Shown in pieces: positions 25,108-59,388 of a DNA stretch of 64,000 bases (position 1 is its first letter; each line of letters starts with the position of its first letter). Location: assembly GCA_044892525.1 (NCBI GenBank), contig CM097885.1, positions 27,406,001 through 27,470,000 on the forward strand. The letters are read 5' to 3'. The notes under the pieces were generated by a model that worked only from the letters and a program-made list of their open reading frames with translations, was not told the origin of the DNA and did not search any database. The position numbers and the translations under genes were made by a program. This DNA comes from Schmidtea polychroa (lineage: Eukaryota).

Positions 25108-25163
<56 letters not shown>

Positions 25164-25227: not shown

Positions 25228-25359
<132 letters not shown>

Positions 25360-25435
25360 GATTTACAAAATTATCATTAGTTTTCGTAAAAATGATAATA
25401 AATTAAGACATTAAAAGATTAAAAGATATATTATA

Positions 25436-32612: not shown

Positions 32613-33315
32613 TGATAATAATATTTATGATTTCATACCTCTCATATTTTATACCTCTGATAATAATAATATTACAATAAATTATATATGTATTCCGATT
32701 ATTATCCCATTTTATAATTATTATGCGATAAAAACGGCCTAAGAATTATTATTAAAGACATTAAATATAAATGCAATTAACTATTAATATTTAAATCTAT
32801 TAATATATTTGAAATATATTTATAATTTATCAGGTAAATTATACCCCGCTACTGCATGTCATCAAATGATCATACAAATATATGCCATAAAAATATGAAA
32901 AACTACTACGGTCATAGATTCTATGGCATCAACTACTTTATATGTCCAATATGCGAGACTTCCCAAAGCATTAAATATATAGAGTTTTATAATATTCACT
33001 GTGAGGAGTTAAAATTAAAATACTAAATTAAATTAGTTCATGATTAAAATTTGTAAAATTTTAATTGAAACTTAAATTATTTTAAGATATTAAAATTGAA
33101 ATGATAATTGAAATTTTAAAATAAAATAATCTTTAATAAAATTGAAATTCAAGTATGAATGCGATGGTATGTTGATATTTGGTTGAAATTAAAATTTAGA
33201 AAATGTCCCAAGAATATTTGTTTATATAATCAGATTTAATGAAATATAATTTTGGATTTAATAGTCTTAGTAATTTATTTTGATGACAGAAGAATTAAAT
33301 GTTATAGCTTCTAAC

Positions 33316-34401: not shown

Positions 34402-34424
34402 GTAATATTGATTTCAACCAAAGA

Positions 34425-37400
34425 ATGAATGCTAACGGTATGTGTAATTTAAGTATGTATGATGATTGTATGATTGATAAAGATTGTAGTGTTTTTGAAC
34501 GTGATATTAATAATAATAGTAGTGTAGAAATCAAAAAGTCGAATGATAAGGAAATTCAGAAAAAATTTAAAGAGGAGTGTAAAGTAAATGAATTAGTAAA
34601 ACACGAGGAAAGAACTATAGAGAAAATTTACAAATTCCTCAAGAAAAATGGAGACGTGTGTATTAATGAAATTGTAGAAGATACTAGAGAGCAGAATATT
34701 TTGTCAGTAGAAGAACAAAAAGGTCCGGTGATAACATATAATATAATGCAAGGTAGACCGAGTACAACACTGGATATCCAAGGGCGGAAAGTAGATTGTT
34801 TATTGGATACAGGAGCGCGAATTAATGTGATGGCTAAATCTGTAATTGATCGATTAGAAAATATCGAAATATTAGAAACAAGGGAATCGCTAAGATGTGC
34901 AAACAACAGTAGATTAGAAACTATGGGTAAAATAAACATCAATGTTAAAATGGGCAGTTATTGAAAGAAATGTAACATTCATTATAGTAAAGAATTTAAT
35001 ACCAGAAATTATTGGAGGAGTAGAACTACAAAGGTTATTTGGTATAGAATTGAAATGTATACTAGAAGAACATGAAAAACGTAGTGATTTCATTTGCGAA
35101 ATAGAAGCTAGATTTGGGCGGATTATAACAGATGAAGAAAGATTACGTCATGCCATCGACGTTTTAAAGGTTACCGGAAATAAGAGACTGTTAGAAATAT
35201 TTCAGGCAAACAAGAATGTTTTTATGGCAGATAAATGGGACATTGGGTGTACCAATCTGATAAAACATAAGATCATCACGAAAGGAGAGCCAATAATGAT
35301 TAAACCGAGACGTCAGCCAATAAATTTGGAAGACAAGATTGAGGAAGCAATAAAAAATCTAGAAAACAACGGAATAATTAGGAAGTGTAATTCACCGTGG
35401 AACACACCTTTAGTTTGTGTATGGAAGAAAGAGATAAAAGACATCAGGCTTTGTCTAGACTTCAGACAATTAAACAAGATAACAGAAAGACAAGCATTTC
35501 CAATGCCAAATGTAGATGAAATTTTAGACATCCTACACGGATCCAGATATTTTAGCTCAATCGACTTGGGAAATGCTTATTACCAAGTGAAGTTAGATAA
35601 AGAATCTCAAGAGAAAACAGCATTCTCAACAAAAGAAGGACAGTTCTGTTTTAACAGGATGCCGTTCGGTATTGTAGCGGCACCAGGAACATTTCAAGAA
35701 TTAATGACGAAAGTATTGAAAGATTTGTGGAAAGATGGAGTGATGGTATATTTAGACGACATCCTAATATTCACAAAGACAGAAGAAGACCATTATAACA
35801 TATTTGAAAAAGTCCTAGGGAAGATCGCAACAGCAGGACTAAGATTGAACCCCGAAAAATGTCAAATATTTAGAAAAGAAGTGAAGTTTCTGGGAAACAT
35901 AATAAATAAAGATGGCATACAAACAGATAATACTAAGATAGAAGCAATACAATCATTTCAAAAGCCAAAATGTGTAAAGAATCTGAGGAGCTTTTTGGGT
36001 ATCTGTAACTATTATCGATGGTTCATAAAAGACTATGCAAAGAAGGCAAGAGCACTAGAAAGCATATGCGGAAAAAACAATGAGAAAATAAGATGGACAG
36101 AGATGTGTGAAAAGGCTTTCGGGGAAATGAAAGAAGCATTGATAACCGCCCCAGTATTGGTATTTCCAGATTTCAGAAAAGAATTTATATTAGACACAGA
36201 CGCGAGCTTCGATACTATTGGAGCAGTTCTTTTGCAAAAGGATGAAAAAGGACATGAACATGTCATTGCATATGGTTCGCATGCGATGAGCAGCCACGAA
36301 AAAGGATACTGCATTACCAGAAAAGAATTATTGGCAATATACTATTTTTGTAAACATTTCAACCATTACTTATATGGTAAGAGATTCGTACTGAGAACGG
36401 ACCATAAAGCTATTACGTTTATGGTAACAACGAAGAAACCAATAACTGCTCAATTCCAGACATGGATCAACTATTTAAGCAGCCTGGATATTAAAATGGA
36501 ATACAGGAAAGGAACAAGCCATACAAACGCGGATATGCTATCCAGGAAAACATGCGGAACAAGTGTACAGTGTATGATGGAATACGAAGACCCAAAAACC
36601 GGCAAAATTAAAACCAGAATATTAACAGTAACAGCAGAAGGCGGATATAACAAGTGGCAAAATGACAATATGGAGGTCCAAGAAATAAAGAATAAGTTAG
36701 AAAATAAAGATTGTAAGTTCATAATGGAAAACAACACGGTACTAACTAAGCAAGGTAAAATATGGATACCGTCAGATAATAGACAGAGGATGATAAAAGA
36801 AGTACACGTATTGCTGTGCCATGCAGGTGCACAGAAAGTAACGAAATATATCCAGAATAACTGCGACATGGAAAATTTAGCAACGGAAGTAAAAAAGGTA
36901 ATTGAGAACTGCGAAAGATGTCAGAAAATGAAAACGATAACAACCAAGACAAAGGAGGAAACTCAAAGAATAAAGAGTACAGAACCATTCGAGAAGATAT
37001 ATATGGATATATGTGGGCCATTGAAAGAAACGTTCAACAAAAAGAAATATATTTGCGGAATCATTGACCACTATAGTAAATACATCTCATTAACGGCCAT
37101 AAACAAGCAAGACGAAAAATCAATTAGTGAGACGTTATTAAATAAATGGATATTAAAGTTTGGAGCTCCAAAAGAACTTCATGTAGATTGTGGGAAGAAC
37201 TTTGAAGCAAGAAGTATAAAAGAACTAGCAAAGGCAGCTGGCATTGAATTAATTTTCTCAAGCCCATATCACCATAACACGAATGGTATTATTGAAAGAC
37301 AATTCAGAACAATCAGAGAGTATATTAACGCGTCATTGAATGAAGGAGGAAGGAAAAACTGGGTTGATATAGTGCCAGAAATAGAATGAAATGGTACTCG

Positions 37401-37691
37401 AATAAAGAAATAAATAGAGAAGATATGGAAAAGAGAATAGAGGATAAAACACTAAAACCAAAAATAAGCAAAACAGTGAGAGATTTTGAAATGGAAGATT
37501 TGGTTTTGATCAAACAAGAAATTCGAAATAAAGACGATGCAAGGTGGGAAGGGCCGTACAAAGTGATAAAGAAAATACATGAACGGAGCTACTTACTTAA
37601 AGATCAAAATGGGAAGATGGTAGTCAGAAATGTTGAGAAGATCAAACATTTTAAAAAAGGGGGATGTGAGGAGTTAAAATTAAAATACTAA
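34425..37691 (+). pseudogene. pol: Pol (PR-RT-RH-IN), frameshifted near 34960 and disrupted near 37385
   Basis: LLDTGA; YLDD; DTDAS RNase H; H..GA..C..C and DDE integrase; WEGPY. Confidence 0.95.
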
Positions 37692-37986
37692 ATTAAATTA
37701 GTTCATGATTAAAATTTGTAAAATTTTAATTGAAACTTAAATTATTTTAAGATATTAAAATTGAAATGATAATTGAAATTTTAAAATAAAATAATCTTTA
37801 ATAAAATTGAAATTCAAGTATGAATGCGATGGTATGTTGATATTTGGTTGAAATTAAAATTTAGAAAATGTCCCAAGAATATTTGTTTATATAATCAGAT
37901 TTAATGAAATATAATTTTGGATTTAATAGTCTTAGTAATTTATTTTGATGACAGAAGAATTAAATGTTATAGCTTCTAACATTCAC

Positions 37987-40900
37987 AAATCACATTTAAA
38001 TCGGTTCTCTTTAAATAAAAAGAAATTGTTTATTAAAATACAACAATCAACACATAATACCACAAAACATATAAATACAAAACCTATAAATAATAATTAT
38101 AATACAAAACATGTAAATAATAATGTAAATAATACTAATCTAAATACGAATCTAAATACTTAAATAAATAATATTCTAAATAATAATAAACAGCCTGCTG
38201 TTAGTTTTGGGTCTGGTGTTCCCTCTAAAATTGTTAAAATTAATACAACTGGTGATTCATTATATAATCAAATAGGTGGTTCGATCGATATTGACGATGA
38301 ACCTGAAATTGAGATAGATTTTAAAGGGTCTAGAAAGAATTTACGATTTAATATGGAAAAAGATAACTTGGTACAAGTTTTCATTACAAATAAGATGACA
38401 AATAAATTAATTACCGAAATAAACGGTATGAGCACAGTTAAAATACAATTCACCGTTTTAATCCAATTCGAAAAAGATGGGGAAATTAGAGATAATTTTT
38501 TCTCTAATAATGCAGAGATTTTTTCAGATAATTTTCTAGTAGAGAGTATCACTAAGTTAAATGAAAAAATAGAAAAATTCACATATTTGGGTAGCGGATG
38601 GCGAGTGGTTAAAATCAAAGAGATAGATTTTATATTAACAAAATTAACCCATATGAATAGGTTAGCTGGACATGGTTATATCCCCACCCCAGCGGCTTTA
38701 AATTCTAAAAAAGCAATAGTAAACGTCAAAAACACTGACGATATGTGCTTTATATATAGTATTTTAGCCCTTTTAAAACGTAATGTAGTACATATAAATA
38801 GAAATAGAGTTAGTTCCTATGAAAATTATCTTGACGAGTTAAATTTTGACCCCATTTCTGATTGTCCAATGAAATTATGTGATATCCCTAAATTTGAAAG
38901 GAAAAATAGTGATTTAAATTTATCAATAAATGTTTTAATTTATAAAAAGAACCCAGCTAAGCCTTCTGAAAATGTAATTGACGATAATTATATTCCACAT
39001 CATCCTCAATTATATATTATTCACCGATCTAAGGTTATAGGTGGTGAACCCATATACTTACTTTTATTGGAAGACGGTGATAATTTCCATTATACCGCAG
39101 TTTTTAACTTACAAAAATTAATGAACTCACACCCAAACAGTGAATGCAGTGTTAAAATTAGAGTGAACTGGTGTCTTCATTGTCTCAATGGTTTTCGACA
39201 TGAAAAAGCATTTAACGCACATGTTGCACTATGCAGTAAGAACCAGATAGGTACTACTTTGTACACGCTCCCTAAAGATAAAAATTTAATTTTTAAAGAT
39301 TACTCCAAGACAATCATCCCGCCATTCGTGATATATGTCGATTTTGAGGCAATCTTACCTGAAGACATCACCCACCACCAAAAACATATGCCAATAACAG
39401 CAGGCATGTTATTAATTAATAATTATAATAATACCAGATTTTATTATGAGTTTGTTGGTGATGATTGTGTGTTGTCTTTCTTGCGTAAGGTAGAGGAAAT
39501 TGCTGTCACAATTGTCCTGCCATATTACGAAATTAATGGGAAAAAGCCCATGCAAACCTTGTCTTTCACTGAAGAACGTGTCTTTCGAGAATCCAGAACC
39601 TGTTATCTATGTAAAAAAATTCATTAAAGATAGAGTTAGGGACCATTGCCACTTCTCAGGCAAGTATCTTGGTGCTGCTTGTAGGAAATGTAATGTTTCT
39701 CGGCGAATTCAGAGACAGTTACCAGTTGTCTTTCATAATTTGAGGGGTTATGATCTCCATCATATTTTGAAGTATGGTTTGAATAATTTTCCTTTTTGGG
39801 AATTAAATATTATTCCGACTACTACCGAGAAATTCATCTCCCTCATCGCGAATATTAACAAATTGCCTGTTCGTTTTATTGACAGCATGCAGTTTGTTAA
39901 TTCATCTTTAGCAAAAGCGGTTAAGACTCTTTCCGATCTGCCTTTAACTTCTTCTGTTTTTGATGATGCAATTGTTCGAGCCAAAGGTATCTTTCCTTAT
40001 GACTTTGCTACATCGCTTGAGGTTCTGGAATCGACTCTTGAACTACCTCCTATCTGGGATTCTGTGTCTAATGATGAGTATGCATTAGCCCAAGTTATTT
40101 GGACTCAGCAAAATTGCAACAACATGTTAGATTACATATTAACTTACCTCAAATTAGATGTATTTCTCCTCGCAGACTATTTTACACCATTCCCTGCAAA
40201 GGCCATTGCTTACAATGGTCTTGAGCCTCTTAATTTCTATGGCATTCCCGGTATGTCATGGGCCTCAGCGCTTATGACATTAACGGAACCCATTGAACTT
40301 CTGCAGGACATGGAAATGTTTAATTTCTATGAAGGAGGGATACGGGGTGGGTTAACATTTGTTAACAAACATTATGTTGCTAGTTCTGAAGACACAGAAC
40401 TCTTGTACATAGATATTAACAACTTGTATGGATGGGCCTTAAGCCAAAATCTGCCTTATGCTGACTTTGAATGGGTGTATGATGATCTTGATTCTGTCTT
40501 GAATGAATGTATGAATGAGGATATTGAAAATCTTCCATATGGGTATACTATGGAAGTGGATATTGATATCCCTCAGTGTTTGCATGATTTTATGAATGAT
40601 TTTCCGATTGCTCCGGAAAAGATGTACCCGCCAGATTCGAAAGTTGAGAAGCTGATGCTCACGCATTGGCCGAAGAAGAACCATGTTCTTCATTGGCGAC
40701 TTCTCAAGTTGTATATAGAATTGGGGGCTATTATTAAAAATGTACATAGGGCAATTAAATTTAAGCATGCACCCATTTTTAAATCGTACATAGACAAAAA
40801 CACTAATTTACGAGCCAATTCTACATGTGAATTATATAGGGATTTATATAAATTATTTAATAATAGTCTGTATGGGAAATCGGTGGAGAATCTGAAAAAG

Positions 40901-41749
40901 CGGATGAATTTGAGGCTATGCAATTCAGCTGAAAAGATGATTGTATATGCATCAAAACCTACTTTCAGAAAATCTATCAAAATTGCTGATGATCTGATTG
41001 CGGCTCATCTGGATAAAGAATATATATGTTTAGACAGACCTAGCTATATTGGTCAAACAGTGTTAAATTTGTCTAAACTGAGGATGTACCAGTTACAGTA
41101 TATAGAATTGTCTAAATATCGTTTAGAGTTTAACTGTGATACAAGTATCGTTGCCGGTGACACTGACTCCTTTTTCTTAGAGATAAAGCACTGTAAGCTT
41201 GACACTCTTTTGCCGGCAATGATTCGTGATAATCTTTTAGATACTAGCAATTATGATCCTGCTCATCCTTTGTATTCAAAGAGTTTGGATTCTGTGATAG
41301 GAAAATTTAAGGACGAAAGTAAAGGGCTTGGTTATAAGGAGTGGGTTTTCTTAAGACCCAAGTGTTATAGTTTGTTAGGGGATAAGGCAACACTTAGGGC
41401 TAAGTGAATTCAGCTTGGTAATACTGAGATAGGGCACCAGTCTTATTTAGACTGCTACAACAACAGCGTAGTATATACGGTGCCACAAACTAGAATAGGG
41501 ACGCGTAACCACCAGCTTCTTACGTTTAAAAATACCAAGATTGCATTGTCAAACAACGATGACAAACGATTATGGGTGGGGAAAAATTCAAGTCTCGCAT
41601 TTGGACATTATTTAGGAATAGATGCCTTAGATGTTGATCAAGTAATTTCAGAAATTCGTCCACTATTCGGAGGTCGAAGTCCAGATTTCAATGATGCCAA
41701 TGATGACAATGATATTAATATGACGTATTATTATCGAATTGATCTGTGA
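37987..41749 (+). pseudogene. pPolB: Protein-primed DNA polymerase B, right-arm copy (5' part continues at ~32856-32999 across gypsy 1)
   Basis: Mirror of the left-arm copy with the same frameshift (~39620) and nonsense (41405), plus a private stop at 38161. Confidence 0.95.
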
Positions 41750-41824
41750 TATAATATATCTTTTAATCTTTTAATGTCTTAATTTATTATCATTTTTACG
41801 TAAACTAATGATAATTTTGTAAAT

Positions 41825-42188
<364 letters not shown>

Positions 42189-43457
42189 TTTTGGATGATG
42201 AGGGTAGGCCCATCACTACATTTACCTTAAATAAGTATTATAAGACTGGGCCCAAAAAATATAGAATCAATGTGTGCGCTGAAGAGCGTAGGTAAATTAA
42301 ATAGCCCAATTCTTCAACAATCCAATGCATCAAATAGCAACCAACAATTCAATCCCTCAATTACAATCCAATGCATCAAATAGCAACCAACAATTCAATC
42401 CCTCAATTAGATTCATCAAATGATGACAATAACTTCTGTGTGATGAATTAATATTGACCTATTCATTTTTCATTCTTTATATAAAATTTTAGTGTATCTT
42501 ATTGACATTATTCTATGTGCCCTATTTATTTCATTGTGTGACATTCTATGTATTTCTAACTTTATTTATTTCTATTTCTATTTTTATTTGTGATTGTATT
42601 GGTAAACACAAAAAATAAATATATATATAGAGTAATTAATATTTATAGATAATAATAATAATTATAATAATAATAATAATAATGGCAATAGTAATAGTAA
42701 TGTTAATGATGATAATAGTAGTGATAATTAATTAATTAATATGAAATAAAAATATTTGGAGTTTAATCAGTCTAACGAGACTGAAAGAATTTAAAAGAGT
42801 GAAATTTAATTCTGACGAGACTGAATAAAATTTAATATAATTAATTTATATGAACCAAAATTCACTATATAAACGACTCACAAAGTCAGTGCAGTCGCCC
42901 AAAAATCTAGCGAAGAATTTTTCTTTATTCAAGGGTTAATCCTGCGGATAAATTAATAACTGAATCAGTACAGAAAGATTCACAGAATATAAAAACTTAC
43001 TAAGACATACACGCACACATAACAATTAACAGATACATAATTCTTACACGCATTTCAGTGAAAGAAATCGATCAATAATTGTCAATCTATTTAGAATCGA
43101 AATTTGTAGAAATTTGGTAATTTTTGATTTCAATAAACATTTATATACACTTATTTGCTTTGTTATATATATAAGAACCAGTAGGTTGAGTGTTCCCGAA
43201 TATCGAGACCTCAACATTTGGTGCCGCGAACCGGGACTTTAAAATCAATTATTGTTATTCACAATTTGGGGGATAGGAATTGAGATCAGAGGGTTATAGT
43301 ATTTTATATTGGGAAAATATATTTATAAAAAGAATATCATTGATCAATTTTAAATAAATAAATTCAGTTTTGAAAAATTATTAAATAATTTAAAAAGATA
43401 AAATAGATAATCAACCCGAAATAGTTTACAATCTCAGAAATAGAATAGTCTATAGGA

Positions 43458-44587
43458 TGAATAATAATAATAATAATTACATAAAAATTTTACCAGTAGA
43501 ACCATATAGAGGAGAGCCTGAAAAGTTCGACGATTTTTTCACTGAGATCGCTTAGTATGCAGAAGCTTGTGGTTGGACACCTGATGAGTTTAAAATGAGA
43601 ATCCCACTATATTTAAAAGGTTATGCGTTACAGGCATACAATAACTTAGAGTGTAAAGGAAATAATTTTGATCAACTCGTAAGATATTTGAGAGCGGAAA
43701 TAGTAATCGATAGCGATTTGCAAAAGATTAATGTTCAAAAATTTAGAAATAGATATCAAGGAACTAGAGAGTCAGTAGGGGAATATGTTTATACAATTAC
43801 TGAGTTAGCGAAAAAGGCATTTGGCGCAGGCGAGCACACAGCAAAATTAATTGAGGATCAATTCTGGAATGGTATACAAAAATATTTATATAAAGCATTA
43901 ATTATGGTAGAATATGGTAATTTAAATGAATTAGTTCATAAAGCTAAGCGTATAGAAGCAATACAACGAGATAGATTTAGTTCACACGTAGATGCATTAG
44001 AGATCCAAAAACCCATAGAGGTAAAATCTGAGTTGGGTAAGTCTGATGACAACATCCCCTGGGAGGAGATGAAACAACTATATTTAAACTTTGTAAAAAA
44101 TAGACGAAGGGCAAGCCCGAGTCCGGATAGAAGTCAATCGCCTGAAAACAGGAGGAGGTTTGATAATGTGAGAAATAGAAATTTTGAGAATAGAAACAAT
44201 AGAAATACTTTTGATAGAGACAATCGTTGTGAATATAATAGAAATAATTATACGAGAGATAATCGAGTCGATTTTAGTAGAAATAATTTGAGAAATAATA
44301 AATATGATAGAAGTAATAGATATGATAATAGAGATAATACAAATGATTTGAGACGTAGACAGACAAGTCCATATAGACAGAATTCATATAGAGAAAGGCG
44401 AGGAAGCCCTTATAATAATGATGGTAGAGATAAAGTAAATTTTAATGGACAAATCAAATGTTATAATTGCCAAAAATATGGCCACTTAGCTAAAGTATGC
44501 AATAATGCACGAAACGAATCACCTAATAGAGTGAGATTCAAAAATGAGCCTGAGATAAAACAGATTAATAGTGCTGAGTTGATATAA
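43458..44587 (+). pseudogene. gag: Gag (capsid, RD/N-rich region, one CCHC knuckle)
   Basis: PLYLKGYALQAY, RYQGTRESVGEY, CYNCQKYGHLAKVC; in-frame stops at 43552 and 44585. Confidence 0.9.
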
Positions 44588-46126
44588 GCTAATGATGAAA
44601 TAAACAGTTTGAGAGAGGAATTAAAAGAATTTAAAACTCAATATGGGAGACTTATTGAGAGAAAGTTAGAAATGTCATTAAACGAGTTTCAGTGTTTTAC
44701 CAATGATGTAGATATAGATAATGATGAGTTTCGTGAAGCAAGAGAAGCGGATGAGAAATTTCTTGCAGAAGCAAATAGATGTAAAGAATTAAAGGAGGAA
44801 TTGAAAGAGACATTAGAAAAATGGCCTTACGATGATAATGAGACATTGCGTATAATAAATAGAGTTCAAGTCGAAGGAATTGACTTAGAGTATTTGAGAA
44901 ATTTGATACCACTAATGGTAAAGAGACAAAATATGACAAGAGTATTTGAATTAGAAATAGAATTGAAAGAAATGATAAAATGTTATGGTGAATTTGTGAG
45001 AAAAAATCAGAAATTGCATGAGTCATTGAATATAACTATTGAGGCAAAGGACCTTTCGAGAATACTTATGCGTAGTACAGGGGTATATGTTTGCACAAAA
45101 GTGAATAAAGTGAAACAAATGGCCAGAGCTAATTGGCCCGAGAAATTGGGAGATAATGATAAAGTGAAAATGTATTTTAACGGTGTAGAAATGATGAATA
45201 ACGAGTATATAATTGACTATGGGGTAAACGTCATCGATAACAATATAATTTCCGCCGTAATAGAAAGGCAAGAAAGTAAGGAAATTGATACACCAACTCC
45301 ATCAGTAGAATTGAGTATAAACGACGAAAACGACTATGATAAATTATTTAGATTGTGGGATGCTTCTTCAGGAGGAGCAATGAAGTCACCAACAGCTAGC
45401 GATGAAATCTTTAAACCTATCGATACTAAATACGATAATTTACATGAGACAATAGAAAAAATTGCGAAGCAGGTAAATATGCAGGATGCAGAGACAATGA
45501 GACGAGGTAGAGGAAGACCTCGAAAATCGGAAATAGCCGAAAAGTCAGATGACAGAAAGGCAGCAGAGCGTTTAAGAGATATCGCAAATAATATGAGACA
45601 GGAAGTCCCAAAAAATCAGGATAATGACAAAGATATAAAGATGATAACAGAGTTAGTTAAAGCAATGAATATGAGACGATTTCCGGAAGCGAAACCATCA
45701 GCGTTAATAGAGAATATAGTTAAAAAGATTAAATTAATGGAAAAAGAGATTAGAGAATTGAGTGCAGAGGAAGCAAATGAAGAGACAGTGCTAAAGATAT
45801 TATTTACAACAGGAGTCAATCGAGATAAAGTGATTACGGCAATGGCATATTTAATAGCAAGATACAAAAAACTCTTGCGATTGAACCCGAAGAATCAAAT
45901 AGAAAATATCGCAAAAATGATATATGATAAGCTAAAGATAGACGCTATGCCATGGATAAAATTAAAGGGAGGATGGAAAATATTGTATGATGAGAATCTA
46001 ATCGAAGGCGCTCAAGAAAGCGTAGAAGATAATATTAATGTAGAAATAGACGATACGGAGGAAACAGTAAAAAATCTAGTAAATAAAACAACTATGAAGC
46101 CAAGTCAAAAAGAAAGGAAGTCGACA

Positions 46127-47990
46127 ATGTCAATAGTAATTATAGTAATAACGTTATTGTTAGATCTGATAAAAGGAAATAATGCGATCGTAGCATATGA
46201 CTGTCAGAATCCCAAGTGGGGACAGAAATATTCATTATTAGATGTAGAAAATTGCCCAGAAGCTAATCCAACAAAGCTAATTGTTGCAGATCCAAAGATT
46301 TTTCACATATATCAAGAGTCTGACTTCATTCACACTGAGGCAGGAGAATGTATCGTTAAATATTCAGAGGAAAGTTTTGTATGTAATAAAATAGCGAGAA
46401 CAATATTAACTCCAACATGGGCACCAGAAGCGATAATAATAGCACCAATCGAATGTGAAAATGCATTTAAGACAAAAAAGATAAAAACGCCGGATGGATT
46501 TGAATTAGATGCTCAGGTAGGAGCACGAGTAAGGCAATTAGTAAATGTCGTTGGATGGTCATCAACAGGAGAATATTGTGAAGGAGGAACGTATAAAATA
46601 TGGGGGCATGTAGCAGACAATATTGTAGTAAGACGACAATATTACATTGAATTAAGGAAATTCAAGGCGTCATTTGATAGTTCATCAAAGAAAATGATGA
46701 CACATAAGTTCTGTACATTAGATGAGACAAGCTGTGATACAGGTGAGTCAATGATCCTATACAAAGTAAATAAATACGAATGCCATCTAACTAAACTAAA
46801 GACATTGAAATTCAGAACAATACGAGGTAAACAGTTCACGGATGTAGAAGCCAAGAACATTAGAGACCAAAAACGACGAGCAACGATAGTTCAAGAGAGA
46901 GATACACCAACGATATATATGTCAGATTCTGAAACAGAAGCGATGAGATTTGTGGGGAAAGGTGAAAGTATCAAATGCGGAAAAGCAGTTATACAAACAA
47001 ATTATGAAGGAATTTATATCAGCGGAAGTGAAATTAAAGAGGCAAAATCAAAAATAGATAAATTCGATGTCAAGCTAGCATCATATTTTAATAATAAAAT
47101 CGACTACTTCTATCATCATCAGTTAGTACAATTGGATAAAGTATACCAAGCAACTATTGCAAACGATTGTAAACTTAATAGAGAAATATTAAGAACAAAG
47201 ATGGCGGTCGTAGTCACAAACCCAGATTTAATGGCACCAATTCTATTCGCAGAGAAAGGGACATTTGCAAGAGTTGTCGGTGAAGTAATACAAACATTTC
47301 AGTGTAAACCGGTTAGCGTATCTTTAGCAACGAATAATAAATGCACAAACGAATAACCAGTAGTGTATAAAGGAGAAACTGTGTATCTCCAACCAATAAC
47401 AAGGATATTAACAGATAAAGACTATGTTCCGAGAAAAATTGATAAATGTACAAATCTATTAGATCCGTTATACAAAATAAATGATGATATGTGGATTACA
47501 ATGTCAGATAGAAAGGAAGCGACTAAACCACAAAAACTAGAATTAACTGAACTTGAGAAAAAGTTAGAATTTCAGGAAGTCAACGAAATGGATAACAATG
47601 GGATGTATTCGAGAGAGGCGATAGAGAGCGCCAGAAAACATATGCTATTTCCTCATGAAAAAGAAAAAGTTCTTTCTATCATGGTAAACAAAATCATCGA
47701 GAATAGTTATGGAGGGAATTACAACTTTGATGTATTATTATCAAAAGAGCACTTCAAGAAAGTTGTATATAGAGTATTATACAGCATATGGGGATATTTT
47801 GCGATTCTCGGTAATACATTTTCCACTATATTGGGTATATATTATACAGTAGCACTACTGAAAATGATTTGTTCATCATTAGTTTCGTTAAGACAACTGA
47901 GACAAGTTTTTGGTAATTCATATAAAATGATAGCATGTTTATGTCCATTCATAGCCAAATATTTGATCACTGCGAGGCATGATAAGGAAA
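46127..47990 (+). pseudogene. env: Chuvirus-G/herpes-gB-like (class III) envelope glycoprotein embedded between gag and pol
   Basis: Internal signal MSIVIIVITLLL..NNA, then IVAYDC..SLLDVENC, a Cys-rich ectodomain, GEVIQTFQCKPV, CTNE*PVVYKG..YLQPITRIL and TM WGYFAILGNTFSTILGIYYTVALLKMI. One in-frame stop at 47354. Confidence 0.8.
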
Positions 47991-48239
47991 TCAAACGGAT
48001 GAAAAGTCGAAGGGAAGAGGGTGAAATAATGATCACCAACGAGAAAGATGACGAGGCAAACAAATCAGAAAATATTGATCAACCACATATTGGGTTATAT
48101 GATAATCAAAGAGAACAATTGACAGAATTAAGAAATAATAATGAAATTAGAATCCCAGGTGAAAATGGTAATTGTCATTGTGTTCCAAGGAAAACTTATG
48201 GATGTTACGGGTTAGAACTTGACGATTTATTAGAAGGGT

Positions 48240-51200
48240 TAAATGAAGCAAGACCTAAACTAAAAATAGTGATAAATAATACGATAATAAAGGCATTATG
48301 TGACACAGGAGCAGCAGCTTCTATGATTCGTGAAGATCAATTAACCGAAAATCAAAAGAAAAATATTGTGAGTACAAGAGATAGAGTAATTTCTTTATCA
48401 TCACACTACATACCATTAAAAGGCGATATCGAATTAACAGTCCACTTTTCAGATCAAGTGGTTGAACATGTCTTCAAGGTAGTAGCAGAATGTAAATGCG
48501 TATGTGTTCTTGGAATGGACATACTCAAAAAGTTAAAAAACTGTGTAATCGATTTGACGGATAGTACAGTTAAACGGAAAGCAATATATCAAGACGCAAG
48601 ATTTACTGAGGTAATTGCATTAGAGACATTCGAACTAGAATATCAAAGTGATCATATAATTCCAGTAAAAGTTAATGTTAAAAGTGAGGACACTTTCATT
48701 TTCGAGCCTGAAACGGCAATATCACGAAATTATAATGTAATGTTAACAGACGAGTGTGTAGTTCCAAATAATGGGATAATTCCAATAAGAATCGCGAATT
48801 ACGAAAGGAATAAAGTAAAAATTCATAAAGGTACAAAATTGGGAAAGTTGTTCAAAGGTGAATTAGAGCAAACATTTGAAGTATGTGAGATGTCGATGAC
48901 GAGTGATGTCAGTGAAGGAATGGTCGAACAGAGTAGAGCGAATAATATTAAATTTTATGATAAAATCAAAATAAATAATAATTATCTAAACGAAACACAA
49001 CAACTACAACTACAAATTTTACTTGACGAATATAGTGATGTTTTTGCAAAACACGAATTTGATTTAGGAGATACTGATATTATCAAACATGTAATTGATA
49101 CGGGGGATGCGAGACCAATAAAACAGAGACCTTATAGTGTACCATATAAACTGAGGGAAGAGATAAAACGACAAATTAAAGAATTAAAAGAGGCAGGCGT
49201 AATAAAACAAAGTTTTTCACAATGGGCATCACCTAGTGTACCAGTTAAAAAGAAAGACGGGGAAATTCGAATGTGCATTGATTATCGTAAATTAAACGAT
49301 GTAACAGTAAAAGATTCTTACCCATTCGCGAAAGCACAAGAGCAATATGATAAACTTAGGGATACTAAGTATTTCACAGTAATAGATGCAAATAAAGGTT
49401 ACATGCAAATTCAAATGGAAGAGGGGGATGCGGAAAAAACTGCTTTTGTGATTGAGGATGGTTTATATGAATATACGAGACTACCGTTTGGGTTAACTAA
49501 TGCGCCAGCAAGATTTCAACGTTTAATGAACACAGTATTAGTAGATGTACAACATTGCGCAGTATATATGGATGATATATTAATTTCATCAAAAACATTT
49601 GAGGAACATCTAAAAGATATAGCTAACGTACTAGAAAGATTAAGAAAAGCAAAAATCAAAATAAAACCCACTAAATGTAAATGGGCAGAACCTTCAGCAT
49701 TATTCTTAGGACATATAGTTAGAGTAGATGGTATAATACCTAACCCCGATAAAATTGAAGTAGTAAAAAAATTCCCAGTTCCAAAAACATTACAACAAGT
49801 ACAGGGATTTTTAGGTCTCACAGGATATTATCGTAAATTCATACAAGATTATGCAAAAATAGCAGCACCACTAATTGAATTAACAAAAGGAGTCAAAACT
49901 AAGGGGGAGAGTAAAGGAGTGTTAATAGTACAGGACATTAACGATAAAATTAACAAGCCACAAAAGAAATGGAAAGATGAACATCAAAAAGCTTTTGATC
50001 AACTAAAAGAAAAATTAATAACAGCACCGATACTAAGATACCCAGACTTTAAAAAACAGTTTATTGTCATGACAGACGCCAGCGGGAAGGCCGTAGGGGC
50101 AGTCTTAGGACAAGAAGAGGAAAAGAGTAAAGATTATGTAATAGCTTATGCAAGCAAAACATTAAAAGGAGCGCAGATTAGGTACTCAACAATTGAGAAA
50201 GAATGTTATGCTATAGTTTTTGCATTAAAACAATTTAAGCCATACATATATGGAACTGAAGTAGTAATTAGAACAGATCATAAGCCATTAGAAGGGTTAT
50301 GGAAACATAAAGATACATCCAGCAGACTGTTAAAGTGGGCTATGAAAATACAAGATATGCACATAAAGATTGTATACAAACCAGGCAGAATAAACAGGAA
50401 TGCAGATGCATTATCACGAATTTCAGAGTTGGGAGCATTAGAGGTTTTTGCATTAGTAACTGAAAAACCAATAGAAATATATGAGGAACAAATGAAAGAC
50501 ATAGAACTTTTCAAGATAACAGAGGAAATAAAAAAGGGAACTAACCAAAAGTATAAAATCTATAAGAAGTTAATTGTTATTGAGGATTTTAGCGGTAAAC
50601 AATTAATAGTAGTACCACAAAGATTAAGACAAATTCTTCTATTACAATATCACGATGGTGCTCTAGGAGGTCATTTATCAAGCAGAAAAACAGCGAGCAG
50701 ATTGATGCACAAATATTATTGGGACGAATTGAAAAAAGATGTTAAGAGATGGTGTAATGCATGCACAATATGCGCAACTAGAAAAAATACAGGAACAAAG
50801 ACTAAAGCACCTTTACATCCAATCCCAGCTACAACATCACCAATGGAACTGTGCGCAATGGATTTTTTATGTAAACTACCCACAACAATTAATGGGAATA
50901 AGCACATACTAGTTTTTAGCGATTATTTTACCAAATGGGCAGAGGCATTTCCTACTAAAGATGAAACAGCAGAAACAGTAGCCAAACTACTTGTAGAAAA
51001 AATAATCTTTAAAATCGGCACACCGAGGAAATTATTAACAGATAAAGGAAAAAACTTCATGAGTGAAACTATAAAAAGAGTAGCTAATATATTTAACATG
51101 CATAAAATCAACACAACAGCATACCACCCTCAAACTGATGGTTTAGTAGAGAGATTTAATGGGACATTGCTAAGTAGATTAGCCGTGTTTGTGGGAAAAA

Positions 51201-51757
51201 ACCAAAATGATTGGGATGAATACGTTAATCGATGCACATACATTCATAATATCACACCAAATGAGACAACGGGATATTCACCATATTTTTTAATGTTCCT
51301 AAGAGAGCCTACAACACCGATTGATACAATTTTTGAACCTCGAGTATCACAATATTTAGATGCGCCAGATTATGTAACATTAATGCAAGAGAGATTACAA
51401 GATGTATACAAAGTTGCAAATTTAAAAGTTAAATTTAGACAAGAACAGTATAAGGCAGATTACGATAAAAATAGCAAACCTCATAATTTTAAAGTGGGAG
51501 ATAAGGTTAGACTTATGTCTCCACAAGTAGGTAAAGGTAAAACAACTAAATTAGCAAGACCATTTAAAGGACCATACGAGGTAGTAAAAGTAGTACATGA
51601 AAACCTGCATTTACAAAAACATAAAAATGAGGATCCGATAATAGTACATGTTAATAGATGCAGATTAGCAGAAACAGAATTAGTAGAAAAACCACCTCAC
51701 AAATATGGATTACGATCACAAAAAGCACTGATGTTGGCTTTTTTAACAATTTTTTAA
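48240..51757 (+). CDS. pol: Pol (PR-RT-RH-IN) in frame with the upstream glycoprotein
   Basis: ALCDTGA; RMCIDYRKLN, YMDD; MTDAS; H..GGH..C..C; DDE core VERFN; FKGPY. Confidence 0.97.
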
Positions 51758-52590
51758 CAATTTAACATTTTTAACAATTATAGGGTTGTGTAAATCAACT
51801 GAAGTAGAAAACGAGAACATACACTCAGTAGAATACATGGCTGAAGATATTTTAATCAACATTTCACCGTATAAGATTAAAGTATATATTATATACTATA
51901 TAACTTAAATAAATCACCAATAAGAGACTTGTATCTGGAAACTAGGGACAATACACCCAAACTTATGAAAAAAATTGAAAATAGATCGACTAATGAATTT
52001 GAAAGAGGAGATAATGTTGAGTTCAGAAGTCTACAACCCAACACTAATTACACACTTTGTGCACAATGGAATACATTAGTTGACACATCACAGATAAGGT
52101 GCAAAAAAATAAAAACTATTAAAATAAACAGACTTAGAATAAAAAAACCAATAGGGAAAAAGTAGCAACAACCAGAAAAACAACTACTGTAAATTCAATA
52201 TCCACACATCCTATATCACAGACGATAACGAATAGGAAAACGACATTTAAAGCGGTTAGACAAATGTATAAAAAATTAACAATGAAAAATCTAAGACAGT
52301 CTGATAGGAAACTGATAAAATTACCTACAGGAAAACCGATAATTATAAATAACTGGAACGAATTACAAGTCTTTAAAAAGAAAGCAAGTAAACCACAATG
52401 GCCTTTTTATGTAATAGCCACAAGTGTAATATCATTCGCGATTTTAGCAATTGTCACTAGTGTACAAGTTTATAAAAAGTACAAGTGGAAAAGGCAGCGG
52501 TATCGGCACCGACTGGTCAAAGAAGCACCAGGGCATTTTCACTTGGACAAATATATCCCTGGACAATATACTCTGTCCACACTGGTATAA
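51730..52590 (+). pseudogene. Decayed type-I membrane protein with FN3-like segment downstream of integrase
   Basis: Signal-like MLAFLTI(I)GLCKS broken by a local duplication; VEFRSLQPNTNYTLC (FN3 L.P.T.Y motif); TM WPFYVIATSVISFAILAIVTSV followed by basic KKYKWKR. Confidence 0.5.
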
Positions 52591-52924
52591 TAACTTAAAA
52601 AATTTTAATTATGTAAATTGGTCGATGATATATGATAAAAGTATATATATTAATATTTATATAACTGCGTATAAGGTTAAACCTCAAATGCGCAACAAGC
52701 ATAAATATTCATTGTTTGTTTTTAGAATAATAATAAGAAGCCTATTCAGCCAATCAAATCAATTCAATCAAATCAATCCTCCTATAAATCAGAATCAAAT
52801 CAATCAATCGCCTCAAATTAGTCAGATCAATCTTCAAGTAAAGCAAAGTCAAATCAGACGATCAAACCAACCCCATCAAATAAATAATCACCCATACCAA
52901 ATCAATCTTCATACAATCGAATCA

Positions 52925-54823
52925 ATGTACCCACATACGTCAGTCCACATGCATTCTCAAAGAACAAAACCTCAGCGAAATCCTGAAACTCAGAAAATAA
53001 AGCAATATGTGCCGATGTTACAGAAACACTACCACGGTTTCTATAAAAATCTGCAAAATAAGATCAGCACAGATGGCACTCCCATTACTATTAGAAGCTT
53101 CCCCAACCAAGTATGCATTCCCAACGATATGAAAGTCGAGATAGAAGAAAGGGAATTGCATCTCATCAAATTTAACGAAGCAAGAAGAGTCAAATTAAGA
53201 GAATTAATCGGGACATATGACAGATTCCCCAATGCAGAGGAAGCTGCAAAAACTGGAAAGAAAGTACCCCATAGAATTTTATTTCACATTACAAAAACAG
53301 AGGTAGCAATATGCCAACATAGAATACCAATAATCACCACGAGCAATTGCACCATAACAATAAAAACTATAAAAAATGATCGGAGTGTCCCAAACGACTA
53401 CAATGAATTGATAGTCCAAATGAACAGCCTACCCTGTGTCATAGCGATTGAAGTATTATACATACCCACTATCCCAAATCCATTTCAGCAGTTGGAACTA
53501 ATCAAGTCAAACATCTATATGCATGGAGATTTCATCAGAAAAAAGATGTCATTTACCCACAGAGAATTATCCACGGCGGAGAGACATCATCTAATAATGT
53601 TTGTAGATGCAAAATTAGTATGCGACATCAACAATAATTTAAGGCCAGTGGAGGTCAGCATACGGAATTTTAAAGGTGTAACAATATTTGATGAGAAAAT
53701 TACACCGAGAACGAAAATCCTACATTATTACCCAGAGAAGACAAAGGCCAACAAAGAAAATATCGTCGGAAATAAAGACGAATACGAAGCACTAGTCGAA
53801 ATCCAACAATTACTTTGCGGAAAAATAGTCGTAGGATTCGACATCATCGGGAAACTCAAAGCTCTCACATTAGATCTGTATAATGTTATGGGAGTTAGAG
53901 AAATGTCGGAAGATGTATTTATGTGCTCGTATGTCAAAAACGTTGCGCCACACAAGATAAAATTGTCCAACCTGGCATACCAGGTAATCAGGCACCATAA
54001 AAAATGGGACAAGGATAAGCGCATAAATAGAATGTTGCGGGAACCAGAACCATTTCCAGCATGGCAAACCACAATGATCGTCAAAGTGATATACACAATC
54101 GTAGAAAATCAATGGGAAGAGGTTGTTAAATGGGATTCAGAAGCCTTCAGTGGACAACAAATGAAAGATCAATTATATCCCATCAAAGAAAGTGGTATGG
54201 AGGATATGTCTGATGATGATGACGACATCTATATAGAACCATCGCAGATCGAAATTAAATTTAACAAAGATGGGACACGAAGAACTTTCGAAGATGAATT
54301 AATAGAAAGTGATGACGACGTAATATTCATCGAAGAAAAGAGAGTACCAAAATTCGATACAACAGTCAAACTGGAACCACAGGAATCAAAATTCCATCCA
54401 GGAAAACTAATGGAATGCGATCTCGACTCTGATGAGGAATACTTCTCAATCGACGAGCAAGAAGAGAAAAATATGGAAGTAGACGAATTGGGACCAGAAC
54501 CGGATATCACAATCGAAGAGGAACCCAATTTCATTATACCCAAGGAGAAGGAGCAAATTACAGAGAAGGAATTAACCCGACATTTTGGAAGGCGTATAAA
54601 TCTCGCATTGGCAAAAGGCTTCAACAAAGCGAGAATGCTGATAAAAGATAATGAAATCGAGCTAGTACGTAGCATAAGAGATAATGCGGACATTATCTTA
54701 ACGGCCCAGGGAGGAATGTTAGATGATGAGGGTAGGCCCATCACTACATTTACCCTAAATAAGTATTATAAGACTGGGCCCAAAAAATATAGAATCAATG
54801 TGTGCGCTGAAGAGCGTAGGTAA
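52925..54823 (+). CDS. Accessory ORF with a REX4/ISG20-like DEDD exonuclease domain and acidic tail; ends inside the 3' LTR
   Basis: MFVDAKLV..VEVSIRNFKGVTIFDEKITP..ILHY..EIQQLLCGKIVVGFDI..LKAL follows the REX4/ISG20 pattern; several catalytic acids appear substituted. Start codon uncertain. Confidence 0.65.
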   Translation: MYPHTSVHMHSQRTKPQRNPETQKIKQYVPMLQKHYHGFYKNLQNKISTDGTPITIRSFPNQVCIPNDMKVEIEERELHLIKFNEARRVKLRELIGTYDRFPNAEEAAKTGKKVPHRILFHITKTEVAICQHRIPIITTSNCTITIKTIKNDRSVPNDYNELIVQMNSLPCVIAIEVLYIPTIPNPFQQLELIKSNIYMHGDFIRKKMSFTHRELSTAERHHLIMFVDAKLVCDINNNLRPVEVSIRNFKGVTIFDEKITPRTKILHYYPEKTKANKENIVGNKDEYEALVEIQQLLCGKIVVGFDIIGKLKALTLDLYNVMGVREMSEDVFMCSYVKNVAPHKIKLSNLAYQVIRHHKKWDKDKRINRMLREPEPFPAWQTTMIVKVIYTIVENQWEEVVKWDSEAFSGQQMKDQLYPIKESGMEDMSDDDDDIYIEPSQIEIKFNKDGTRRTFEDELIESDDDVIFIEEKRVPKFDTTVKLEPQESKFHPGKLMECDLDSDEEYFSIDEQEEKNMEVDELGPEPDITIEEEPNFIIPKEKEQITEKELTRHFGRRINLALAKGFNKARMLIKDNEIELVRSIRDNADIILTAQGGMLDDEGRPITTFTLNKYYKTGPKKYRINVCAEERR

Positions 54824-56565
54824 ATTAAATAGCCCAATTCTTCAACAATCCAATGCATCAAATAGCAACCAACAATTCAATCCCTCAATTAGATTCATCA
54901 AATGATGACAATAACTTCTGTGTGATGAATTAATATGGACCTATTCATTTTTCATTCTGTATATAAAATTTTAGTGTATCTTATTGACATTATTCTATGT
55001 GCCCTATTTATTTCATTGTGTGACATTCTATGTATTTCTAACTTTATTTATTTCTATTTCTATTTTTATTTGTGATTGTATTGGTAAACACAAAAAATAA
55101 ATATATATATAAAGGGTAATTAATATTTATAGATAATAATAATAATTATTATAACAATAATAATAATGGCAATAGTAATAGTAATGTTAATGATGATAAT
55201 AGTAGTGATAATTAATTAATTAATATGAAATAAAAATATTTGGAATTTAATCAATCTAACGAGACTGAAAGAATTTAAAAGAGTGAAATTTAATTCTGAC
55301 GAGACTGAATAAAATTTAATATAATTAATTTATATGAACCAAAATTCACTATATAAACGACTCACAAAGTCAGTGCAGTCGCCCAAAAATCTAGCGAAGA
55401 ATTTTTCTTTATTCAAGGGTTAATCCTGCGGATAAATTAATAACTGAATCAGTACAGAAAGATTCACAGAATATAAAAACTTACTAAGACATACACGCAC
55501 ACATAACAATTAACAGATACATAATTCTTACACGCATTTCAGTGAAAGAAATCGATCAATAATTGTCAATCTATTTAGAATCGAAATTTGTAGAAATTTG
55601 GTAATTTTTGATTTCAATAAACATTTATATACACTTATTTGCTTTGTTATATATATAAGAACCAGTAGGTTGAGTGTTCCCGAATATCGAGACCTCAACA
55701 ATAGTAATAGTAATAATAGTAATATTAATAAAAATAGTAATCATAATAATAAAATGACTTTGTATTTACATAACCTTTGTTAAATTATTTTATTGTTTAA
55801 ATAGATGTATGTTTTATTGATTTGTTTAATAATACCCTTGTGAGTTGTTGAGCGTGAGCAGTACCCTTTTGAGCATTACCCATAGGGGGATAAAATATTT
55901 TGTCGGATAAACTCGGAGTATATATAATAATAACCCCTGTGTTTAAAAGACCTTTATTTTCCAATAATAATATCTCTTGTCGGGAACTCTCGAATTTCAA
56001 ATAAAAAAAAAGAACTTTATATTAAAAAATTTGACCTTGGAAAGAATTTTAAAAATTTCCCCTAGGGGGGGGGGGGGGTGGGGTATGTGATCCAGCGGAC
56101 CCCTATCCATCTACTTATTACCCTTTAATTTTTTCATTTTCTTTTGGATTATTGGATGTAAGAGTGATTAAAGTCGTACAGATTATCTGCGCCTCTGATC
56201 AGTCCTACATTCAACCATGTTATAAAATATACTACAGCAACATGCAGACACGTATTATCTTTATTATAAATCTTTTTTTGTTCGGTCATCGGATGTCGTC
56301 CTCTTCATGGTTCTGCCATGGAGTTGTGTCGATATAACCCCTCCGCTATGGCTCCAACTATTTATTATAGGTCGACAGCGTTATGTTTCGAATCAACACA
56401 ACAATAGGGCTTGTCGTAGCGGTCACAGTGGGGCCTGGTAAGCAAGCATTCTTCCCGACTTTGAGTGCAGTACAATTAAAATCAACAGTAAAAATTTTGT
56501 ATATTACTTTACACTAGGACTTTAATTGAGTAGACCTCAGACCTAAATTGATCACAGCTCTACAA

Positions 56566-59388
56566 TAGGGTGGAGTGAAAATGACCGAAAAAAAATTTTT
56601 TGACTTAGTAGACTTTGGATAGTTATAAAAACTTGCTATGAGGTCCAATGAAGTACTCTGTAAAGAAAAACAATAATTTAAATAATGTCTTGAGGTTCCA
56701 CAACCAACTTTAAAATGTAACCATTGATAAGAAAACGATAATGTATTTGCTATTATTGACATATTATTGAAGTCATTGATGGCATTTAAATAATATTTTC
56801 ATTACTTTTAATAGCAAAATATTTGCCACCCATACACTATGGATTTTAAATGCCTCTGGTTTTCCTTTTTAGAGTTGCAATGGCTGTAACCAGAAAGAAA
56901 GTGTCTTGTGTCATCTTTGGTGGTCCATCCGAGATGCCCGACAATCAACTACCGACTTATGCAGATGTTATGAAATTCTACAACCTGACAAAGCAGAGAC
57001 TGAAATGCGAATTGAACAATAAAGATCCTTCACATCGCAACGTGGCAGAAACAGTGTCAATGAAAGTAGAACAAATATGGGACAAAGCTTCCATACCACA
57101 TGTAAGCCACCGCCGTGTTCATGAAATTTTGAACGTGTACCACAAGACGTTCATGAAATTGCTGAAGCCGTATAAATCTAGGAAGGACTCAGAACCATAC
57201 AGAGAGAAAATATCGCAGTTTAAAGATGAATCGATTAAACTCTTTGACATTTGCTCCTGCAAGTGCTCTTGTATGTCTCAGTGTCACTGTGAGAAGTCAA
57301 GAAAGATACCCACAATTGAACGTGACTTTCTAGAAGATCAGCGGGGTTCACGCTGTATGATCATAGCTGGAGTTGATGAGTTTGAATCCAGTATATTACA
57401 AAAGCGGTATATCCGTAAAGAGTCGACACAGAGGCAGATGTGTACCAAATCTGCCATTGATGACATCGGTGATAAACAGTCGGATGTCTGTGACGAGATT
57501 TCTGGAATGGAAGAGGAAATGGATACCGGCGATGATGACTCTGATGACGATTGTATAAGCCAAATTAAACAACAACGAAAATTGAATGACAAGCAGATGA
57601 GAGTTAAGCTACCGTCGTTGGCTTTAGCGTGTGATCGACATGGCGTATCCGACAGGGCGGCAGCAGGAATCGCCAGTGCTGTTCTTCAAGATGTTTGAAT
57701 AATCCACGAACATGATGTTTCTAAAGTGATTGACAGAAGTAAAGTGCGTCGAGAACGTTGTAATAAGCGTGGCGCATTATGTGCCGAAGTCAGTAACACA
57801 ATCACTGGGTTATATTTTGACGGCAGAAAAGACAATACAATGACCCAAATTAAAGAATGCGATGGTAAATTTCATCGGAAAATAATAACTGAAGAACATA
57901 TATCGATTATAGCCGAACCAGGAGCTACATATTTCGGTCACATTACACCAACTGCAGGGTCAAGCAAAGTTATCACGGCTGAGTTGATTGCATATTTGAA
58001 TAAAAGAAATGTTGACACGAGTGGCATAAAAGCAATAGGTTGTGATGGGACAGCCACTAATACGGGCATTCGAGGAGGCATCATTCGATTACTTGAAGTG
58101 ACGTTACACAGACCGCTACAGTGGTTCGTATGTCAGTTGCATGCAAACGAATTACCGTTAAGACATTTGTTTCAGTATCTCGATGGACCTACCAATGGTC
58201 CAAAAGGATTTTCTGGTCCCATTGGAAAGTCATTGTTGAATTGTGAGAAGCTTCCCATCGTTGACTACATGCCGATAAACTGTGTTCTACCGTCAAGTGC
58301 AAATTCCGACGATTTAAGTACAGATCAGAAATACCTGTTCGATTTGTGTACTGCTGTAAGTGTTGGTATTTGTCCTGTCGACCATTCACTTCGCAATCCT
58401 GGTCTTATCAACCATTCGAGATGGTTAACCACGGCTAATCGCATACTACGTCTGTATGTTGCCACAAGAAGCCCGTCGGATGAACTAAAGACGCTTGCTA
58501 CCTTCATCGTAACAGTTTATGCACCTGCATGGTTTGAAATAAAGAATACCCCTTCGTGTAAAGACGGCGCTCGACATGTCCACAGTACGATACTGAAATC
58601 ACGCTACCTCACAGACGAGCTGAAGAAAGTTGTTGACCCGGTAATTCAACGCAACGCATTCTTTAGTCATCCAGAAAATCTGTTGCTAGCGATGCTTACC
58701 GATGAAAGATCAGATATACGCGAGTTAGCTCTGCGACGCATACTGAAATCCAGAAAGCAGAAACGTACGACTTCAGTTAGATCTTTCTGCGTGTCAGTAA
58801 TCAACTTTGAAGCTACTAGCTACATAGACATGATCGATTGGCAGAAAACTCCGATCACAGAGCCTCCAATCGTAGTGGACATTGACGAAGATACTTTGTT
58901 AACCATGATCCGGGAAGAAGAAACGCCAAGACTGGATTTCGCCCGCTATCCTTGTCACACCCAGGCAGTAGAGAGACATATCAAGCTAGTGACAGAAGCA
59001 TCCGAAATGGTGTGTGGTCCAGAAAAACGCGACGGATTCATTAGAGCACGCTTGGAATCGAGATTGAAAATGCCAAAACTGGACACCAAAGCCCAACATC
59101 ATTTGTAGTTATAAAAACATGTTAGACAGTTTGCATGTGGTTTCCCTTCACAGATATGGTTCTTATTACTTGTAATGTTATGTACAGACTGTTAAAAAGT
59201 TAAACCATAACATAAATATGTTACTTATAAAAAAATGTTTTTTTTAAAGATTATTGCTTTTTTATCGAAATATGCCTATACTTTAGGTCAATTGTGGAAC
59301 CTCAAGATATTACTAATTGCATGTGTTACCAAGTTTTTATAGCTATCCAAACAAGATATTAAGAAAAAAAAATTTTCACTCCACCCTA
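56566..59388 (+). mobile_element. hAT (hATm-type) DNA transposon
   Basis: TIR TAGGGTGGAGTGAAAA / TTTTCACTCCACCCTA; 8-bp TSD CTCTACAA at 56558-56565 and 59389-59396. Confidence 0.95.
56880..59108 (+). pseudogene. hATm transposase with a single nonsense codon (57696-57698)
   Basis: YFDGRKD, GCDGTATNTG, CQLHANELPLRHL, SRWLT, PCHTQAVER; both ORFs are in the same frame. Confidence 0.9.

Follow-up and report, generated by a model that had tools for sequence, protein, structure and literature searches.

A putative second membrane protein fused behind the integrase in a clade of Ty3/gypsy elements with a gB-type envelope gene

Results

A gB-type GAG-ENV-POL element in the window

The window, a stretch of 64,000 nucleotides of the Schmidtea polychroa genome (contig CM097885.1), carries at approximately 42188-55700 a Ty3/gypsy LTR element of about 13.5 kb with the order LTR-gag-Bcl2-gB-type env-PR-RT-RH-IN-LTR. 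All hallmarks of the group are present (two LTRs, a primer-binding site, a purine tract, and gag followed by PR-RT-RH-IN), and all parts of the element lie on the forward strand. Self-BLAST delimited the 5' LTR (42188..43216, start approximate) and the 3' LTR (54716..55700), the latter just preceded by the purine tract; their alignment comprises 972 matches, 11 mismatches (11/983 aligned positions) and 3 gap runs. The primer-binding site, TGGTGCCGCGAACC, follows the 5' LTR at about 43219.

The gag region (43556..44587; PF00098, E = 2e-4, above cut-off) has a CCHC knuckle and is ended by an in-frame stop (44585-87). It is followed by a Bcl-2-like domain at 45773..45976 (PF00452, E = 1.4e-5, and 4.4e-6 in a second scan; 26 bits, below the 31.4 cut-off), and then by a first internal signal, a fusion glycoprotein of the gB/Monjiviricetes type (env) and a TM region (46127..47900), with PF24664 matches flanking an internal stop of env (47354-56) on both sides (E = 8.5e-39 and 6.5e-41). 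Protease, RT, RNase H and integrase (Pfam RVP, RVT_1, RT_RNaseH, Integrase_H2C2 and rve) occupy 48245..51718, the integrase ending in HKYGLRS. The HSV/gB-type env hence sits between gag and pol, which is the GAG-ENV-POL arrangement, and all these parts share one frame, into which two stops fall, one behind gag and one within env. With these two stops and three frame breaks further downstream, the copy lacks intact continuous ORFs and is therefore a defective member of the GAG-ENV-POL gB-type errantivirus family. A separate long ORF at 52448..54823, with an ISG20-like DEDD exonuclease region (1wlj, E = 2e-4) and an acidic tail entering the 3' LTR, gave zero matches in a Pfam scan.

Pieces of a membrane protein behind the integrase

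The pol frame terminates with HKYGLRSQKALMLAFLTIF-stop (51698-51757), that is, with the hydrophobic end ALMLAFLTI that had drawn attention to this region. The original prediction placed a frame-breaking local duplication here. The break exists (51740-51779), but the 12-mer TTTTTAACAATT is triplicated rather than duplicated (51740, 51751 and 51768, spanning to 51779), and it is one of three breaks. The second falls in TA-rich sequence around 51883-51900, the third in a run of A around 52155-52162. The 12-mer occurs nowhere else in the window, where 0.23 copies are expected, and 0/100 shuffles reach three. These breaks may reflect decay or an assembly error. The predicted IIGLCKSTEVE stretch, LQPNTNY motif and TM with basic flank were all found, but spread over three pieces downstream of the pol frame, each in a different reading frame; the first piece, TFLTIIGLCKSTEVE, begins at 51765.

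Read across the breaks, the pieces have the order of a type I membrane protein. A second internal signal-like segment (51698..51797), in the same position as in the relatives described below, has a basic n-region and hydrophobic stretches ALMLAFLT / TFLTIIGL, and is disrupted by the 12-mer triplication. By the small-residue rule for signal peptidase sites, rather than by computation, cleavage would likely follow LCKS. The putative ectodomain starts with TEVE...ILINISPYKIKV (51798..51884), which has one N-glycosylation sequon and alone gave no significant profile match, and continues in a basic, FN3-like piece (51881..52162) picked out by a generic FN3 profile, with the E-F strand motif LQPNTNYTL at 52031-52057 and three sequons. 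A strongly basic, Thr/Ser-rich stalk (52162..52404; 17 S+T, 18 K+R and 2 D+E in 79 aa) leads to a transmembrane helix (52405..52470; best 19-residue KD mean 2.19) and a predicted cytosolic tail (52474..52590) with the basic stop-transfer flank KKYKWKRQRYRHR right after the TM. The last piece ends STLV-stop (52576-52590, STLV itself at 52576-52587), a class I PDZ-binding pattern.

Contigs from four sequencing runs of three studies with the same species label were compared with window positions 51000-53200. The element family is abundant and diverse among them, and their lengths differ from the window at all three break regions. By hand count these differences are compatible with an open frame, with one exception, a joint of low depth that two runs of one study share. 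Because none of the contigs from these runs spans the whole of 51000-53200, an open frame within one single copy would have to be pieced together from several of them.

Unbroken relatives continue from the integrase into a membrane protein

Integrase relatives were taken from the best 120 of 394 search matches and from a search among longer proteins, which added 21. In a midpoint-rooted FastTree phylogeny of the 142 integrases including the window, the window and 23 listed relatives (12 short, 11 long) form an exclusive clade (24/142, support 0.999), within which the window is a long branch. With the same integrase query, zero related loci were found in metagenome contigs and zero in viral contigs.

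The original prediction called for a continuous IN-signal-FN3-TM frame in intact copies, as opposed to copies that stop at the end of IN. Unbroken relatives carry such a frame, against the refuting case of a stop at IN: in 20 of the 23 listed proteins, which as related sequences are not independent of each other, one ORF continues beyond IN, first into a signal-like segment and an ectodomain, then into a TM helix close to the C-terminus, and ends with a tail. Signal-like segments were called by hydropathy and by eye; those of P0006 and P0010 are weak. The post-IN ORF is without a TM in the three remaining proteins, P0005 (which has signal and FN3), P0013 and P0229. All 11 long members have a PF24664 env upstream of the protease, accompanied in 10 by the second membrane protein, and gag features lie within the same ORF in P0227, P0228 and P0233. 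Ubiquitin-like and ankyrin domains occur among the relatives, and in several members protease-like or ankyrin domains lie between IN and the second signal. The original prediction did not foresee the swapped ectodomains described below, the C-terminal PDZ-binding motif or the two further breaks. Nor did it include a cassette upstream of the protease, which resembles signal-FN3-TM and is found in P0014 (residues about 40-230) and P0173. Since P0014 carries a cassette after IN as well, some clade members may encode three membrane proteins.

Additional aspartic-protease-like domains recur along the polyproteins, some of them after IN (P0002, P0003, P0013 and P0224-P0233); several are without canonical DTG/DSG context or look diverged. 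Continuation of IN into a membrane protein was also seen in unrelated chromodomain gypsy proteins (P0022, P0032, P0049, P0074 and P0094). Among these, a rhabdovirus-like glycoprotein domain was found in P0049, and both P0022 and P0094 have S/T-x-L at their end.

FN3 nature of the ectodomain

In most relatives the ectodomain consists, on profile and fold evidence, of one to three FN3 repeats. A family repeat profile found them in 17/23 clade proteins, a partly circular count as many of these are in the profile; P0228 shows just the motif. A profile built from nine natural ectodomains matched 104 proteins, and of the 33 that were scanned, 26 score above the cut-off for Pfam fn3, while the other 7 belong to the family as additional members. 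The ectodomain of P0006, the one relative that was fold-tested, grouped with fn3 clusters in the atlas at 0.93 and gave an almost entirely beta AlphaFold model (pLDDT 67). Against fibronectin FN3 tandems this model reached a Foldseek E of 1e-8 with a global TM of 0.25, a low value that probably reflects differing domain orientation, and against single FN3 domains VIA Z scores of 8-8.9, at about 3 A over roughly 83 residues in each domain. An FN3 beta-sandwich is accordingly well supported by profiles for the ectodomain of the relatives, the predicted model of P0006 being its fold basis. No specific cellular receptor could be retained as the FN3 donor, as identities in the fold matches are below 20% and none stands out.

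The FN3-like ectodomain of the original prediction stands firmly in these relatives, but the evidence for the window's own piece is weak and several tests were not significant. With the generic FN3 profile it ranks top of 916 window pieces (8.0 bits, next 3.6), a score equalled in 0/1000 shuffles, and in 6/1000 with a smaller seed profile. Its atlas fn3 score of 0.89 is a lead only, and its model is all-beta (pLDDT 60; VIA Z 5.0-5.7, chiefly with FN3 and Ig-like domains). The match to the family repeat profile is not significant (56 and 73 of 1000 shuffles equal the score), the Pfam E is 0.044, and Foldseek gave no match at E<=0.001. Joining the pieces across the second break by X left the profile score no higher than that of the single piece, and whole-tail and single-repeat family profiles matched none of the window pieces beyond chance. 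As a query among longer proteins, the FN3-like piece returned 27 candidates and 0 homologues, which is weak evidence. The weak match may be due to the window being a long branch.

No Pfam fn3 match was found in any of the 23 listed clade proteins (12 short, 11 long), and this invisibility to Pfam may explain why the module has not been annotated. In P0012, P0230 and P0233 a Cys-rich domain, judged by eye, replaces FN3. This domain is probably helical, and the tails of these three proteins end E-x-V and carry PPxY, which we take to be late-domain-like.

A recurrent PDZ-binding pattern at the C-terminus

The class I PDZ-binding pattern is S/T-x-V/I/L at the extreme C-terminus. In the window it ends 5/204 stop-to-stop pieces of at least 60 aa. 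It also ends 12/23 listed clade proteins, related sequences that do not count as independent, as against 3/118 other listed integrase proteins. When P0005, P0013 and P0229 are set aside, it is found in 12 of the 20 TM-bearing members, where tail composition predicts 0.69 (maximum 5 in 10,000 draws); 16/20 end in V, I or L, and 8/20 are without the class I motif. A tail-free profile recovered four additional members whose TM tail is complete; all four end T-x-V, although three look close to proteins that the count already includes. Several sub-clades retain the motif despite unalignable tails. YxxPhi motifs occur in 11/24 tails and PPxY in 3. The tail would quite probably bind PDZ domains.

Divergence of the module

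The post-IN region diverges strongly between close relatives. In the closest long pair, P0224/P0225, identity is 94% in env, 94% in RT and 93% in IN, and falls to 57% in the FN3 region and 49% in the TM-tail; in all close pairs (7/7), identity lies at 78-92% for IN and at 25-57% for the post-IN region. Three pairs compared stretch by stretch have the post-IN region as their most or joint-most variable part. Within clusters the pre-env region is about as variable, and the linkers of P0224/P0225 also drop to 52-58%. Since the linkers diverge as far, the divergence of the module need not reflect positive selection.

Discussion

Proposed processing and function

We propose that the polyprotein of working clade members would cross the ER membrane several times. 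The first internal signal would open the gB-type fusogen, and the TM of env would bring the chain back to the cytosol for PR-RT-RH-IN. The second signal, right after IN or, in some members, after protease-like or ankyrin domains, would then send a second ectodomain into the lumen, where signal peptidase would free a type I glycoprotein, the signal staying on IN until trimmed. The freed protein would consist of one to three FN3 repeats (one predicted in the window), a Thr-rich basic stalk, a TM and a tail with a PDZ motif. FN3 and stalk would be lumenal, with basic residues preceding the signal core, and the basic stop-transfer flank and tail would be cytosolic. Judged from sequence, signal cleavage and topology are very probably of this kind. 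The second glycoprotein would be produced 1:1 with the fusogen, and its PDZ tail may direct it to polarised membranes or cell contacts, so that the element would pass from cell to cell.

What such a protein would do can be stated with less confidence. The role that we favour, at somewhat less than an even chance, is that of a variable partner of the conserved fusogen in attachment or adhesion, borne on particles and aiding cell-to-cell transfer. More tentatively, one polyprotein may supply a two-glycoprotein envelope, in which a conserved class III fusogen would be joined by a captured, hypervariable and exchangeable FN3 attachment protein whose PDZ tail would steer assembly to cell junctions for spread. 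The second glycoprotein co-occurs with the fusogen, as two-component entry systems require (10/11 long members). Nevertheless, several class III fusogens attach to cells without a partner, which counts against an attachment partner, and this role is not singled out, because the swappable ectodomain and the pre-protease cassettes would equally fit an array of accessory genes.

The main alternative, with processing as above, is a surface protein of the producing cell. Such a protein could be a decoy, an adhesion mimic or a block to superinfection, its PDZ tail engaging scaffolds of the host, and like the other accessory domains (Bcl-2-like, ankyrin and ISG20-like) it would protect the host cell. 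The fold matches, dominated by cytokine receptors, receptor phosphatases and adhesion molecules, which are typical bearers of FN3 tandems, agree with this, as do the other host-modulating domains of the element, the similar cassettes before the protease in P0014 and P0173, the swappable ectodomain, and the YxxPhi (11/24) and PPxY (3) motifs of the tails. Against it, the module shares its frame with Gag, Env and Pol, no cellular receptor emerges as the closest, with fold-match identities below 20%, and the long basic Thr-rich stalk would suit a protein that reaches outward; we regard such a role on the producing cell as rather unlikely. The TM and the terminal motif are kept, whereas the ectodomain, in the most or joint-most variable region, differs in repeat number and even in fold; this would also be expected if the second signal served to tether Pol/IN to the assembly membrane, with the PDZ tail selecting the budding site and the ectodomain as a loose spacer. 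A spacer needs no FN3 repeats, however, and these are kept with conserved motif spacing in 17/23 proteins (a partly circular count), in numbers up to three, which makes a pure anchor improbable.

Two further explanations concern whether the module is a product of the polyprotein at all. Its expression could be separate, from an internal start or a spliced RNA, and its fusion to IN incidental: the hydrophobic segment of the window contains an ATG (MLAFLT), and the ORF3s of rotifer LTR elements have been described as separate, spliced units in typical cases (PMC5408684). This is distinctly improbable given that 20/23 diverged relatives have no stop between IN and the module and that several have protease-like domains between the two, which suggests proteolytic release. 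The pieces might also be functionless, either open frames that arose by chance or captured DNA that has decayed, as three frame breaks in 900 bases, pieces with no significant match to the tails of relatives and an FN3-like piece with no homologue among the 27 candidates could indicate. The order of signal, FN3 motif, stalk, TM, basic flank and S/T-x-V nevertheless equals that of the unbroken relatives, in the same position, and other copies differ precisely at the break regions, so that this explanation is already largely refuted and we consider it very remote.

Comparison with known elements and viruses

GAG-ENV-POL errantiviruses of the HSV/gB type have been described in Platyhelminthes, including Smed_errantivirus_3 (Chary and Hayashi, eLife, PMC13524379), to which the window element is close and which shares with it an env between gag and pol and a gB-type fusogen. 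Compared by eye, its env segment, given in the supplement, differs from that of the window at about 43/246 residues (about 80% identity). Fibronectin or FN3 has 0 mentions in the main text and seven supplementary files of that paper, figures apart, and its passages on errantiviruses describe no second membrane protein after IN, unlike what is found in the window clade.

The giant planarian gypsy elements Burro/GYPSM1 encode one polyprotein with gag, a BCL2-like domain and env between gag and pol, and also ankyrin and ubiquitin-like domains (Arkhipova and Yushenova, PMC6431247). A BCL2-like domain before an in-frame env is common to Burro and the window (in the latter PF00452 at E ~1e-5, below the curated cut-off). 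In contrast, Pfam matched no MATH, BIR or ankyrin domain in the window copy, and Burro exceeds 30 kb, with an internal region of up to 25 kb, as against 13.5 kb with 1-kb LTRs in the window (PMC6431247). Membership in Burro was rejected on this difference in size. Named Burro sequences are absent from the listed integrase matches, and FN3 or a post-IN membrane protein is missing from the account of Burro in section 7 of that paper. Bdelloid rotifer LTR elements have extra ORFs after pol that bear a TM or a DEDD exonuclease (PMC5408684), and a DEDD-like ORF is present in the window as well; the rotifer ORF3s are separate, whereas the module of the window clade is fused to IN, and the rotifer paper contains 0 mentions of fibronectin. 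No description of a post-IN membrane module was found in the literature covered; the original Burro description, RepBase and published figures lie outside this scope and may mark a TM there. The comparison suggests that the element type is already known and that its second membrane protein after IN is apparently undescribed.

Entry by two components is known from herpesviruses (gB with gH/gL and gD) and from paramyxo- and pneumoviruses (F with HN, H or G). As in these, a conserved fusogen stands beside a variable second glycoprotein in the window clade, and the mucin-like basic stalk of the window recalls pneumovirus G; the viral partners are encoded by genes of their own and do not belong to the FN3 proteins, and the likeness is one of arrangement. 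Polyproteins with internal signals occur in flavi-, hepaci- and alphaviruses, and viral C-terminal PDZ-binding motifs in rabies G, coronavirus E and HPV E6. The former resemble the window clade in internal signal-anchor processing, the latter in the terminal S/T-x-V. Unlike these viral polyproteins, those of the window clade have enzymes between two membrane glycoproteins, and belong to a reverse-transcribing element.

Accounts of env-bearing retrotransposons usually give them one env, and the window clade encodes a second, receptor-like protein, predicted to be of type I. If this protein is the attachment factor that we tentatively favour, fusion and attachment would be split in a retroelement, and the module could help to explain how such elements gain access to the stem or germ cells of an animal. 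As a decoy, it would point to host surface pathways that such elements are under pressure to manipulate.

Other elements of the window

Besides the element studied here, two adjoining in-frame ORFs at 56850-59105 look DNA-transposase-like by eye and are without a Pfam match. A 4.1-kb inverted duplication (25036-29195 and 37990-42153, 99%) encodes a DNA polymerase B of the protein-primed type; together with an integrase, an A32-like ATPase and other ORFs at 1200-13800, it suggests pieces of a Polinton/Maverick. Between its arms lies a second gypsy element (33000-37982), which is env-less and has identical LTRs of 318 bp.
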